From the NCBI GenBank assembly GCA_903892515.1, contig CAITIS010000057.1:143067-207066 (forward strand): a stretch of DNA of 64,000 nucleotides, in the 5' to 3' direction. Positions 26,565 to 44,401 of the stretch are shown here, in pieces. The DNA comes from an uncultured Planctomycetota bacterium (lineage in GTDB: Bacteria; Planctomycetota; Phycisphaerae; SM23-33). The translations under genes and the position numbers were made by a program. Within the stretch, counting starts at the first letter, position 1. The number at the start of each line of letters is the position of its first letter. Under the pieces are notes generated by a model. That model did not search any database and was not told the DNA's origin. It saw only the letters and a program-made list of their open reading frames with translations.

Positions 26565-26799
26565 ACGGCAGGGCGTAGGGCATAGGGCGGAGGAAAGAGA
26601 AAAGACGTCCGCAGGGTGGCATGGTCACGCTGTTCGCGTGACCATGTGAGGACGCATCACGCAACCCTGCGCTCTGCGCCGAATCAGGTGCCGTGGCTTG
26701 CGAGTGAAGCGAGCAACCACGTTCGCACACGGGGGCACGCGTCCCGAATCGTTCCCCACGGTTCCAATCGGTCCATCGTATAATTATTCACGTCTCATA

Positions 26800-26843
26800 T
26801 TGACAAAAATATCTCATGGTGTATCATTACTGTAGTGATACAC
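26800..26843 (+). promoter_or_regulatory. Sigma70 promoter with overlapping 25-bp palindromic operator
   Basis: TTGACA-N16-TATCAT; GTGTATCATTAC-T-GTAGTGATACAC (11/12 inverted) over the -10. Confidence 0.75.
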
Positions 26844-26860
26844 TAAAGAAGGAGATGCCC

Positions 26861-40887: not shown

Positions 40888-41970
40888 ATGGCTTTGAACC
40901 GTTCCATCAGGGTGTTGATCGTCGATGACTCCGCGGTGGTGCGTCAGGTGCTCTCGGCCGAACTGGCCAAGACGCCCGGCATCGAGGTGGTCGGCACGGC
41001 CATTGATCCGTACATCGCGCGGGACAAGATCGTCCAACTCCGGCCTGACGTGGTGACGCTGGACGTGGAAATGCCGCGCATGGACGGCCTGACGTTCCTG
41101 TCCAAGCTGATGAAGTACATGCCCATGCCGGTCATCGTGGTCAGCTCGCTGACGCCCGAGGGCAGCGACATGGCCGTTCGGGCCCTGGAACTGGGTGCGG
41201 TGGACGTGGTGGCCAAGCCCGGCTCGTCGTTCTCCATCGGTACGATGTCGGCGATGCTGGCGGAGAAGATTCGCCAGGCGGACAGCTGCCGCTTCCGCAA
41301 GCTGCCCGATTCGCCGCCCCAGGGCGTCGCATCGGCGCCGATGGCCAAGGGAGCGGCCGGCCTGCACACCACGCAGAAGATCGTCGCCATCGGCGCCTCG
41401 ACCGGCGGCACGACCGCTATCACCAACGTGCTGACGCGCCTGCCGGCGGACATGCACGGCATCGTCATCGTCCAGCACATGCCTGAACACTTCACCAGCG
41501 CCTTTGCCAAGCGGCTTAACGAGTGCTGCCAGATGCAGGTGCGCGAGGCGTGCGACGGCGACATCGTCACCACCGGCGTGGCGCTGATCGCGCCGGGCAA
41601 CTATCACATGATCCTGCGGGCCAGCGGCGCCAAGTACTTCGTTCAGATCAAGGGCGGTCCGCCGGTGTTTCACCAGCGGCCCAGCGTGGACGTGCTGTTT
41701 CAGTCGGTGGCCCAAGCGGCCGGCCAGAACAGCCTGGGCGTCATCCTCACCGGCATGGGCGCCGATGGCGCCCAGGGCTTGCTGGCCATGCGCCACGCTG
41801 GGGCCAGGACCGTCGCCCAGGATGAGGACAGTTGCGTCGTGTTCGGCATGCCCAGGGAGGCCATTCGCCTGGGTGCGGCCGAGAGGGTTCTGGGGCTCGA
41901 CCGGATTCCCTCGGCCATAGTCGATGGCTTCTCGTCCCACCCCAAAGCGGTGGCTGTCGCGGCCGTGTAG
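40888..41970 (+). CDS. cheB: Chemotaxis methylesterase / response regulator
   Basis: REC (TLDVEMP), [34 protein letters not shown]. Confidence 0.97.
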
Positions 41971-42601
41971 CGCTGGCCGCGCCGGAGGAACGGGCCGCCG
42001 ATAGCGACGCTAACCACAAAGGCACAAAGAAGCGCCGCCACAAAGGGCACAAAGAACAGGCGAAGACTTCGAACCGGTTTCATACCCGGTTTGCCTCGTG
42101 GCACAGCCGCCCTCGGCTGTGGTCTTTGGTCGCCGGGCGTCTCGCCCGCGCGGGCAGTCTTGCCCACCTTACCTCGCCGACGCTGGCATAGGTAGAGCCG
42201 CAGGACAACGCGGCTCAACCTATGGCACCCATAGCCGGATGGGTGGCATGGTCACGCTGTTCGCGTGACCATGTGAGGATCTTCCACGCGGAGGACCTTC
42301 CACGCGGCGCTGCGTCTCCCCGTCTTCGTGGCACAGCCGCCCTCGGCTGTGGCTGTTGCGGCCAGATCAATGTCTTCTCGCGCGGTTTCACGCCCGAGGG
42401 CGGGCGTGCCACGGGTATGAAATCAGTTCTCACATTGGCTTCATGTCCTTCGTGGCTTTTCGCATTCTCGGCCTTTCTCTGTGCCTCCGTGGCAAAAGCT
42501 GTTGCCTTGTTCCGCGCCCCCGTTTTGTTTTGGCGTTTTCGTCATTGCGTGCCACAATGTCGCCTGGAGTGACGGCTGACAGATCGGCCAGGAGGCGCCT
42601 C

Positions 42602-44401
42602 ATGACGGAGCGGCTGTACACAATACATCAGGTGGCACGGATGCTCGGCGCCGACACCCGCGAAGTGGCCCAGTGGATGCAGAAATCCTGGCTGCCGTTT
42701 CGCCGGCTGCCGGAAGGCACGCTGAGAATTTCCGAGACCAACCTCATCGAATTCCTCAAAGGCCAGGGCATCGACATCCGCGATGTGCTGGGCCCCAATG
42801 CGCCGCAAACCGGCGATCTTGTGGACACCCCCGCGCCAACCACGCCGGAGCGCCCATCCGAGCGGCCGATGGCGCCGGCCCGGCCGGAGTTGGTGGCACA
42901 GGCGGGAATCGGGAATCGGGAATCGGGAAGCCGGAATCCGGAAGTCGGAATCGGGAGTCGGGAATCGGGAAGCTGGAAATCGGAAGCCGGAAGCCGGAAT
43001 CTGGAATCCGGGGTGCAGGGTCGGGCAACGACCGTGACACCGTCTGAGGCCGCGGCGCCCGTCTTGGCCATCGAAGCGAAAGATACGATCGAGGATTTGG
43101 AGGCGGCGGAACTCCGCGCCGAGGACGAGCTGGCCGAGTTGAAGAATGAATCCCGAGTGACGGAAGAATCCCCAGCGCCGGCCGGCGAAATCCAGGCCGC
43201 ACGCGTCGGGTCGGAAACATCTGGGCAGACCGCCCCGACGCCCGGCGACGCCGCGGCGCAACTGGCCCAGGCCATCTTCCGTGAAGCCCTGGCGCGAAAC
43301 GCTGAAGAGATCCACCTCGATGCCGACGGATCGGGGCTGAATCTGCGCATGCGCATTGACGGCGTGCTGCAAGGCCGCGGCGCGCTTCAGGGCCGACTGG
43401 ATGCTGCCGTGGCTCCGCAGCTTTTGGCACACCTGAAGTTTCTGGCCGGAGTGGACGTTTCATCCCGTGGCTTGCAGCGGGGGCGATTCTCCAGCCTGCT
43501 GGATGGCTCGGCCCAGGAGTTCGAACTCATCGCTTGCCCGGTCCGTCACGGCGAACGGCTGACGCTGCACGTGCTGGACAGCCAACGTGGCCTGATGAGC
43601 TTGGCCGACCTTGGCTTGGAGAGCGCCGACGAGCGACGGCTTCGCGGCCTGCTGCGGACGGCGGGGGCGATGATCCTGCTGGTCGGGCCGCCGCGGAGCG
43701 GCAAGAGCACGACGCTGCGGGCGATGGTGGCCGACCGGGCCGATCCGTCGCGCCTGGTGGCGCTGCTGGAGGCGGGCCCAAGTGCATTCGTGCCCGATGT
43801 TGCCCAGGCCACGGTCGATGCGGCGGCGGGTTTTGGCATGGCTTCGGCCGTGCAAGCCTTCGCCGCCCAGGACGCGGACATGATCGCTGCTTGCGACGTG
43901 CCCGATGCCGCCACTTGCGCCGAACTGCTCAGGAGCGCCCAGGCCGGTGCGACGGTGCTGGCAGCGCTGAATGCCCCCGACTGCGTGGCGGGCCTGGGGC
44001 GGTTGTGGGAAGTCGGTCTGGAGCGCTGGGCGACGGCGGCGAGCCTCTCGGCCATCATCACGCAGCGGACGCTCCGGCGGCTTTGTCCGGAGTGCCGGCG
44101 GCCGGTCGTGGCGGCAGAGATCCCGCCGCGCTGGGAGGCGATGCTCGAAGGCCGCGGCCCGATCTTCACGGCCTTAGGGTGCGAGCGGTGCGGCAAGAGC
44201 GGCTACTCTGGCCGGACGGGCGTATTCTCGATCCTCCATGTAGATTCTGCGTTGGGGGCGATGATCCGCCACGGCGCCGACGCGCAGGCCCTGGCGGACG
44301 CCGCGACGAGCTTTGAGTCGCTCGTCCAGGCCGGCCTAAAGAAGGTGCTGGCCGGCGAGACCTCGCTGGAGGAGTTGGATCGCGTGCTGCCGATGGCGTA
44401 G
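42602..44401 (+). CDS. Excisionase-like HTH fused to a degenerate PilB/GspE-family ATPase
   Basis: LYTIHQVARMLG...W...LP...GTLRI; AEEIHL, RIDGVL, Walker A GPPRSGKST, CPEC...CERC, GYSGRTG; Walker B and His box altered. Confidence 0.82.
   Translation: MTERLYTIHQVARMLGADTREVAQWMQKSWLPFRRLPEGTLRISETNLIEFLKGQGIDIRDVLGPNAPQTGDLVDTPAPTTPERPSERPMAPARPELVAQAGIGNRESGSRNPEVGIGSRESGSWKSEAGSRNLESGVQGRATTVTPSEAAAPVLAIEAKDTIEDLEAAELRAEDELAELKNESRVTEESPAPAGEIQAARVGSETSGQTAPTPGDAAAQLAQAIFREALARNAEEIHLDADGSGLNLRMRIDGVLQGRGALQGRLDAAVAPQLLAHLKFLAGVDVSSRGLQRGRFSSLLDGSAQEFELIACPVRHGERLTLHVLDSQRGLMSLADLGLESADERRLRGLLRTAGAMILLVGPPRSGKSTTLRAMVADRADPSRLVALLEAGPSAFVPDVAQATVDAAAGFGMASAVQAFAAQDADMIAACDVPDAATCAELLRSAQAGATVLAALNAPDCVAGLGRLWEVGLERWATAASLSAIITQRTLRRLCPECRRPVVAAEIPPRWEAMLEGRGPIFTALGCERCGKSGYSGRTGVFSILHVDSALGAMIRHGADAQALADAATSFESLVQAGLKKVLAGETSLEELDRVLPMA

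Follow-up and report, generated by a model that had tools for sequence, protein, structure and literature searches.

We analysed a 64,000-nucleotide stretch of DNA from an uncultured Planctomycetota bacterium (GCA_903892515.1, an assembly of 4.9 Mb in 159 contigs) that covers positions 143,067 to 207,066 of contig CAITIS010000057.1 (C57:143067-207066). This stretch is referred to as the window; its base composition is approximately 64% G+C. The subjects of the analysis are two plus-strand genes, gene 1 and gene 2, that flank a block of flagellin and chemotaxis genes (fliC to cheB). A preliminary description of the sequence held that each encodes a helix-turn-helix (HTH) domain, a linker and the body of a PilB/GspE-type ATPase with four cysteines, and that the two genes form a functional pair, one active and one pseudo. 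The two open reading frames (ORFs), their architecture and their placement around the fliC-che block were all confirmed. The pairing was not: the proteins are 28% identical, fall into separate clades, and are shared by only 5 of 60 genomes in the window's taxonomic family. Genes 1 and 2 belong to two separate families, and on balance we consider it probable that gene 2 is a flagellum-tied regulator or adaptor made from a dead PilB and gene 1 an ATPase with no link to the flagellum. Both families are uncharacterised. The parts of the two genes are as follows.

26861..28456, plus strand: gene 1, comprising HTH_17 (about 26993-27139), a linker, an intact PilB/GspE-type ATPase (about 27248-28420) and a tetracysteine
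42602..42790, plus strand: gene 2, N-terminal winged-HTH domain (aa 1-63), assigned from profiles, orthologues and an AlphaFold model
42791..43240, plus strand: gene 2, linker (aa 64-213), disordered and rich in Pro, Glu and Ser (predicted local distance difference test, pLDDT, mostly <50)
43241..44401, plus strand: gene 2, PilB-like N2D, degenerate P-loop domain and tetracysteine (aa 214-599)

Domain architecture and catalytic motifs

Gene 1 encodes a protein of 531 amino acids in which Pfam HTH_17 (aa 45-93) scored 50.1 bits against a cut-off of 27, and the excisionase-family domain TIGR01764 scored 41.8 bits against a cut-off of 28.8. Most of the remaining sequence matches T2SSE (PF00437; aa 130-520, E = 1.6e-100, 336.8 bits vs a cut-off of 24.9). 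The catalytic motifs are all intact in the translation (Walker A GPSGSGKTT, Asp box VEDPVEY, Walker B/Glu GEIRD, His box LHAT), as they are in three members of the family that were checked, and the CxxC...CxxC pairs form a putative Zn tetracysteine site. Scores with the equivalog models are about half of the cut-offs, both for PilB (TIGR02538, 368.9 vs 675.65) and for GspE (TIGR02533, 368.1 vs 630.25). Many positions of the HTH are invariant in an alignment of 25 sequences that are 45-62% identical overall to gene 1, for example F62, Y63, R64, W65, R67, K75 and G77 to F82, and this invariance points to a constrained ligand.

The gene 2 product (599 amino acids) matches T2SSE from aa 220 to 594 (E = 1.1e-54, 185.9 bits vs a cut-off of 24.9) and also falls below the PilB and GspE equivalog cut-offs (193.8 vs 675.65 and 209.2 vs 630.25). 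The N-terminal HTH that had been proposed for both proteins passes the HTH_17 cut-off of 27 in gene 1 only; gene 2 scored 20.7 bits as a full protein and 25.3 bits when the domain was searched alone. Despite this, several lines of evidence led us to retain the HTH call. Five of six orthologous N-termini match HTH_17 at E ≤ 0.01 (best E = 3.5e-7), a profile comparison matched the gene 2 N-terminus to the HTH of PDB 8jbs (E = 0.0032), and the HTHs of genes 1 and 2 align in register with hhalign (E = 0.0025, at a probability of only 12%). Also, AlphaFold modelled aa 1-63 at pLDDT >90 with the order strand-helix-helix-strand-strand-helix. A weak match to MerR_1 (E = 0.0054) is confined to the HTH, and the model has a disordered linker after the HTH where a MerR-type protein has its coiled coil.

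Most of aa 214-599 was likewise modelled at pLDDT >90, with the linker between the two domains disordered, and the best Foldseek match of this body is the Thermus PilF/PilB core (TM score 0.90, root-mean-square deviation 2.1 Å). The reading frame is open throughout, and the four cysteines of the CxxC pairs are present as a putative Zn site. The original contrast between one intact and one degenerate copy holds for most of the active site: in gene 2 the Asp box is gone, as are the catalytic Glu (CDVPD replacing GEIRD) and the His box (LNAP), but in the window genome its Walker A motif is canonical (GPPRSGKS).

Neither protein has a Pfam match at E ≤ 0.1 to the N1 docking domain (N1D; GSPII / MshEN PF05157 / GSPE_N1E; T2SSE_N), and the position of that domain is occupied by HTH_17 in gene 1 and by the candidate HTH, with its sub-threshold HTH_17 match, in gene 2. 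No Pfam match to PF00158, the sigma-54 interaction AAA+ domain, was found in either gene. Across the whole genome there are 19 matches to T2SSE and 27 to HTH_17, and only the gene 1 and gene 2 ORFs combine the two.

The architecture of gene 2 is common to at least 118 clusters at 50% identity. A word-indexed homologue search with gene 2 yielded only two true family members among 120 listed, and an exhaustive profile search was used instead; there, 118 of the best 150 representatives listed carry an HTH of the gene 2 type. Among 114 complete representatives, a canonical Walker A was found in 3, the Walker B Glu in 41, the His of the His box in 6 and the ED of the Asp box in 3. None of the 114 has all four catalytic motifs, and all 114 have the four cysteines. 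Generic PilBs and members of the gene 1 family placed in the same alignment keep every catalytic motif. R251 and G254, from the RxRIDG motif of the N2D, and D426, the Asp of Walker B, are conserved in at least 90% of 70 sequences, so that ligand binding without hydrolysis is possible in the gene 2 family. In tblastn comparisons with five relatives, identity was 39-56% in the HTH and 34-38% in the ATPase body where these parts align separately. Judging from these alignments, no part of the gene 2 family is better conserved than the HTH. The length of the linker varies greatly among the relatives aligned.

Distribution of the two families and linkage to the flagellum

A BLAST-level search found gene 2 orthologues in 5 of 40 relatives. 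To describe the distribution more widely, a profile of the HTH only (A2) was run at E ≤ 1e-12 against a class sample of 400 genomes, the tallies of which include one unpublished genome, G676 (family f7). The profile matched 39 of 60 genomes in the window's family (f1), 14 of 22 in family f3, and none of 318 in 22 other families; FlhA is present in most of these 318. The gene 2 family is thus lineage-restricted, occurring in two taxonomic families in the class sample. In a sample of the phylum, the other matches to the profile were mostly ORFs of ~200 aa that are not relatives of gene 2, and two larger ORFs in family f28, in G386 (490 aa) and G052 (464 aa), are possible distant members.

In f1, FlhA and gene 2 are both present in 38 genomes and both absent from 9, while 13 genomes have FlhA only and none has gene 2 only (Fisher p = 3e-5; the table sets aside G508, in which the HTH match lies in a 200-aa ORF). 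The corresponding numbers in f3 are 13, 6, 2 and 1 (Fisher p = 2e-3), although both p-values make the association look stronger than it is, related genomes not being independent. In the sole f3 exception with gene 2 and no FlhA (G580), flgG to flgL directly adjoin gene 2. Two FHIPEP (FlhA-type) matches are present in many f1 genomes, a hint that these encode a second system of the flagellar or type III kind; the window genome has a single such match.

Flagellar markers were present in the fetched flanks of 15 of 45 gene 2 loci. Two arrangements recur, flgK-flgL-TPR-gene2 and cheB-gene2-fliK-flgD-flgE-PilZ-flgF-flgG, the second of which is the one found in the window. Two genera of f3 carry short forms (~225-240 aa) that consist of HTH, linker and N2D only, and the gap to the next gene is too small for a P-loop domain; these adjoin TPR-flgL-flgK in five of seven loci. 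The short forms imply that ATP hydrolysis, and even the P-loop fold, is dispensable for the function of the gene 2 family. The TPR protein itself (~230 aa) is conserved 3' of flgL and often directly adjoins the gene-2 homologue (window 59165-59872; L009, L125, L126, L130, L139, L141, L146, L147, L151, L153, L162, L167-L169, L172 and L173).

Upstream of gene 2, the motif TTGAC-N16-19-nAnAAT was found in 29 of 51 regions, compared to a mean of 0.045 and a maximum of 2 in shuffled sequences and a single occurrence on the reverse strand. Ahead of the window's gene 2, the motif is weaker as judged by eye (TTGGCG-17-CACAAT). Visual inspection of the 51 regions revealed promoter-like elements only and no palindromic site.

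The HTH_17-T2SSE fusion of gene 1 also recurs in other genomes: PF12728 and PF00437 are both present in all 120 of the best homologues listed from a collection of 5.8 billion proteins, and the source names include Phycisphaerae, Planctomycetota, Lentisphaerae and Hydrogenedentota. In a protein atlas, automatically named HTH/T2SSE clusters are most frequent in Planctomycetota. Full-length orthologues are present in 5 of 40 relatives; a wider sample of other genomes of the phylum had them in 16 of 400, and the window's own family in 13 of 91. The gene 1 family is conserved in architecture and sporadic across genomes. A search of genome contigs that keyed on generic ATPase motifs was discarded; 78 of its 80 loci were ordinary PilB, and the N-terminus of gene 1 was covered only in L029 and L075.

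The motility linkage that the preliminary description expected in the neighbourhoods of homologues was found for gene 2, by gene order and by co-occurrence with FlhA, but not for gene 1. Flagellar or chemotaxis markers were found within ~9 kb of gene 1 relatives at none of 23 genome loci, using the window genome's proteins as BLAST markers, as in all of the negative synteny results reported here, and heuristic ORF calls in the compared loci. The 80 metagenome loci (47 of them ≥8 kb) yielded one FliR match, one FliA-like match, two CheY-like matches and one match resembling a sigma-54 regulator. Flagellar genes stand beside gene 1 in the window's copy only. No neighbouring family is common to more than 5 of 103 gene 1 loci; a neighbour cluster of 12 proved to be the antisense ORF of gene 1 itself. 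A PilC/T2SSF gene directly adjoins distant relatives only, at L029 (34% identity), L217 and L238 (39%). No platform gene lies next to gene 1 at any of 21 Planctomycetota genome loci, and PilC matches anywhere in the flank were confined to 4 of 80 metagenome loci, all at ≤39% identity, one of which (L244) is an ordinary PilB cluster. The BLAST test that was used on neighbours is unsuited to pilins, which are short and diverge too far.

Interpretation and alternative explanations

In the reading that we favour, each of the two families has exchanged the N1 docking domain of a PilB/GspE-type ATPase for a winged HTH of the excisionase/MerR type. The gene 2 family is predicted to have lost ATP hydrolysis while retaining the fold, the N2D and the putative Zn site. 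Most likely it binds DNA and takes part in flagellar gene expression as a regulator or adaptor, with a sigma-70-type promoter of its own driving its synthesis. Oligomerisation or sensing might then be the task of the dead motor body or, in the short forms, of the N2D alone. This reading of gene 2 draws on the type of its domain, on the pattern of conservation, on the linkage to the flagellum and on a sigma-70-type promoter that is separate. For gene 1 there are two candidate roles: it may be tethered to DNA and regulate in a nucleotide-dependent way, or it may be a motor with partners encoded elsewhere.

A number of observations weigh against this interpretation. DNA binding by either HTH is a prediction from domain type only, and the gene 2 domain scores below the HTH_17 cut-off. 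Since its Walker A motif is canonical, gene 2 of the window genome may still bind nucleotide. Gene 2 is not needed for flagella in general, because 13 of 51 FlhA-positive f1 genomes do without it. No flagellar gene was found in the fetched flank at 30 of 45 gene 2 loci, eight of which are contigs of <6 kb, and the recurrent neighbours at the non-flagellar loci are an NAD-epimerase (13 loci) and mfd (7 loci). Promoters of the sigma-70 type fit any housekeeping gene. For gene 1, the PilC genes that adjoin L029, L217 and L238 favour an ordinary motor role.

The main rival for gene 2 is a scaffold-type role at the flagellum that does not involve DNA. The family would then be a structural, assembly or positioning factor in which the HTH-like domain binds protein and the dead body or N2D is a scaffold, possibly docked on a live PilB/PilT-type or other ATPase. 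Gene 2 is located among late structural genes (flgK-flgL-TPR, fliK-flgDE) and not beside the two sigma-54 activators or fliA, its long disordered linker is acidic and proline-rich, and the N2D survives even where the P-loop domain is lost. Excisionase-fold proteins can, moreover, work via protein contacts, as TorI does. We nonetheless regard this role as rather unlikely, given that the best-conserved part of the protein is the HTH, which matches DNA-binding domains of the HTH_17/MerR type, that the other matches of its profile in the same genome read as HTH plus receiver-like proteins, and that gene 2 has a predicted sigma-70-type promoter of its own and so would not be transcribed from within flagellar operons. 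There is also an improbable elaboration of the regulator reading: the gene 2 family would be a flagellum-dedicated checkpoint or transcription factor with its HTH on flagellar promoters, while its N2D, all that the short forms retain of the motor, would dock in trans on a live PilB/PilT-type ATPase at the P-loop domain of the latter, reciprocally coupling flagellar expression and the pilus motor. If true, this would amount to a motility-mode switch of a kind not known before. The loss of catalytic motifs and the low-complexity linker might also be taken to mean that gene 2 is a decaying duplicate without function, but we find this hardly credible in view of the open frame, the architecture shared by at least 118 clusters at 50% identity, the four cysteines in 114 of 114 members, the confidently modelled fold, and the conservation of promoter and synteny.

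For gene 1, it is quite possible, if somewhat short of probable, that the protein is a plain motor with remote partners, driving either a type IV filament or a machine of the type II secretion-like kind, the HTH serving for autoregulation or as a substitute for the N1D. Its catalytic motifs and putative Zn site are all intact, the genome has many scattered T2SSE genes (the 19 matches mentioned above), and PilC/T2SSF lies directly beside three distant members. Such a motor is harder to reconcile with scores at about half of the PilB and GspE equivalog cut-offs, with the missing PilM/GspL-docking domain, with the scarcity of platform genes (adjoining at 0 of 21 Planctomycetota loci; PilC in the flank at 4 of 80 metagenome loci), and with an HTH whose invariance points to a constrained ligand. 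The original proposal, that an active gene 1 and a pseudo gene 2 form one system, perhaps a mixed hexamer with nucleotide-gated DNA binding that coordinates pilus and flagellum, appears very improbable. The two genes share an architecture and a strand, flank the fliC-che block, and both lack the N1D, and both are present in 5 of 60 f1 genomes. Of these 60 genomes, however, 38 have gene 2 and 9 have gene 1, so that gene 1 is absent from 33 of 38 gene-2 genomes and gene 2 from 4 of 9 gene-1 genomes; in G628 and G491 (completeness 94 and 95%) gene 1 is present and neither FlhA nor gene 2 was found. Gene 1 also has no flagellar markers at 23 genome loci and one FliR and one FliA-like match at 80 metagenome loci. 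The 28% identity between the two ATPase bodies is no closer than that between gene 2 and ordinary PilBs (27-31%), and the short gene-2 forms lack the P-loop domain that a place in a ring would require. In a FastTree phylogeny of 60 ATPase cores each family forms a clade of its own and the two are not sisters, with a deeper common origin of both fusions still compatible with a tree that is midpoint-rooted and places the pseudo-ATPases on long branches. Identity, phylogeny, co-occurrence and the compared loci therefore indicate that the flanking of the fliC-che block by the two genes is peculiar to this genome and does not reflect a conserved system.

PilB/GspE ATPases (PilT/VirB11-like, T2SSE PF00437) are regarded as dedicated filament motors whose N-terminal domains dock on the machine or bind cyclic di-GMP (c-di-GMP). 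Genes 1 and 2 share with them the body of N2D, P-loop C-terminal domain and tetracysteine; gene 1 keeps every catalytic motif, and the gene 2 model superposes on the Thermus PilF/PilB core (TM 0.90). They differ in having an HTH in place of the N1D (GSPII/MshEN), in falling far below the equivalog cut-offs, and in having no adjoining platform, pilin or secretin genes, and the gene 2 family differs further in lacking the catalytic residues and, in some members, the whole P-loop domain. MerR-family regulators have a dimerising coiled coil and an effector-binding domain, whereas the gene 2 HTH is followed by a disordered linker. ArlH/FlaH, a KaiC-like non-hydrolysing ATPase of the archaellum, is a further parallel, in that a protein with an ATPase fold but weak or no catalysis regulates a motility machine, although the fold and the machine are different and there is no HTH.

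Closer precedents exist for parts of the proposal. Myxococcus xanthus PilB signals for exopolysaccharide production and so provides a precedent for a PilB-type protein that is a signal transducer and not a motor alone; it is, however, still the pilus motor, lacks an HTH and is not reported to bind DNA (PMC5544727). FleQ-type master regulators are analogous in joining a ring-ATPase-derived body to an HTH and in controlling flagellar genes (PMC3424551), but their fold is unrelated (AAA+ sigma-54 activators, PF00158). Genes 1 and 2 have no PF00158 match, and two such activators are encoded separately in the same cluster. The HTH of genes 1 and 2 is of the same small winged type as that of the excisionase/MerR-type proteins Xis, TorI and Euo (HTH_17), which differ in being small and stand-alone, whereas in genes 1 and 2 the HTH is joined to the body of a motor ATPase; neither gene was seen to lie in an integrase or recombination context. 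Chlamydial Euo, an excisionase-like winged-HTH protein, shows that this fold can act as a global transcription regulator in the PVC group (PMC4989314).

The suspicion of novelty stands, insofar as a full-text search, whose scope was papers outside subscription journals and supplements, found no literature on HTH-fused or pseudo-PilB proteins and no description of either family. A 2024 review of PilB regulation deals with N1D/c-di-GMP and protein cofactors, and in its accessible text the term 'DNA-binding' is absent and the sole 'helix-turn-helix' concerns a phage inhibitor (PMC11656802). To what is described for PilB-type proteins, the gene 1 family adds an intact ATPase whose accompanying HTH is very strongly conserved and which has no machine genes nearby, and the gene 2 family adds a case in which catalysis, and sometimes the whole P-loop domain, has been given up while co-occurrence and gene order link the protein to the flagellum. 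To our knowledge, flagellar regulation in Planctomycetota has been little studied. If gene 2 is a regulator, it would represent a lineage-specific layer of flagellar control in this phylum and a clear case of a motor ATPase turned pseudo-enzyme regulator. In practice, work on these proteins is limited by the fact that the organisms encoding them are almost all uncultured.

The surrounding locus and further observations

Gene order places gene 2 within a flagellar supercluster that extends over ~58 kb from fliC to a sigma-factor gene, and gene 1 at its very edge. The other features of the window are listed below.

26800..26827, plus strand: sigma-70-like promoter 5' of gene 1, TTGACA-16-TATCAT, an 11/12 consensus match only
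28713..28729, plus strand: terminator-like hairpin 3' of gene 1, a pattern match only
28934..29773, plus strand: CxxCxxCC (YkgJ-type) protein between gene 1 and fliC (PF03692, E = 1e-6)
30120..41970, plus strand: fliC, fliD, fliS, two small ORFs without assignment, cheX, cheA, cheR, cheD, cheY, cheX, cheB
42102..42121, plus strand: terminator-like hairpin between cheB and gene 2, a pattern match only
44787..44801, plus strand: exact sigma-54 -24/-12 consensus TGGCACGATCATTGC in the spacer between gene 2 and fliK
44818..58839, plus strand: fliK, flgD, flgE, PilZ-domain gene, flgF, flgG, flgA, flgH, flgI, (unassigned ORF), flgK, flgL
59165..59872, plus strand: TPR protein 3' of flgL, the orthologue of which is the commonest direct neighbour of gene-2 relatives elsewhere

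The hairpin after gene 1 suggests that this gene is a single-gene unit. The promoter-like site before it is one of three found in a sigma-70 scan of the whole 18.6 kb, where 2.9 were expected. Exact sigma-54 consensus sites occur only twice in the window, at 44787-44801, just before fliK, and at 61831-61845, and both are intergenic. With one mismatch allowed the window has 13 such sites compared to 7.4 by chance, which is not clearly enriched, 3 of 100 shuffles reaching 13. A sigma-54 activator gene (PF00158) follows the TPR gene at 60369-61481, and just past the right end of the window the cluster continues with the second one, a receiver-sigma-54 activator, and then flgB, flgC, fliF, fliG, fliI, motA, motB, fliM, fliR, flhB, flhA and a sigma factor.

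The preliminary description was also correct that neither gene has pilin, platform or secretin genes beside it: T2SSF, pilin and secretin families were not found among the scanned ORFs adjoining gene 1 or gene 2. At 23-1830, on the 5' side of gene 1 and 25 kb away from it, there is a PilT-PilC pair, and the left end of the window is crossed by an ordinary PilB-PilT-PilC cluster (23-1830 together with G000:C57:141309-142457). The genes immediately 5' of gene 1 (23149-26564) encode an RnfC/Nuo51-like flavoprotein and a tandem-BMC shell protein and may belong to a microcompartment locus. Between fliS and cheX (33864-35168) there are competing ORFs on both strands, and neither of the two plus-strand ORFs tested there has a Pfam match. 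The PilZ-domain gene at 48634-49764, between flgE and flgF, keeps its position in relatives L008, L127 and L145 and may encode a c-di-GMP-responsive flagellar brake or assembly factor.

The profiles also retrieved proteins that belong to neither family. Several T2SSE proteins of ~1000 aa (P0250, P0260, P0262, P0271, P0277 and others) scored high with the gene 2 profile; their motifs are intact, they lack an HTH, and they are extended at the C-terminus by a long additional region. Two of the ~200-aa ORFs that match the gene 2 HTH profile lie in the window's own genome (C124:10427-11011 and C98:157986-158723) and read by eye as an HTH_17-type domain followed by receiver-like sequence. ORFs of this size matching the profile were found in all 20 sampled genomes of family f18, and these proteins may be little-described response regulators with an N-terminal excisionase-type output domain. 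A third odd T2SSE protein of the same genome (G000:C134:68383-69537, 552 aa), located outside the window, occupies a long branch in the tree and has a hydrophobic N-terminal region that looks membrane-spanning. Its motifs are degenerate (GPRRNGVTS, with the Asp box and His lost), and it may be another PilB-derived pseudo-ATPase.

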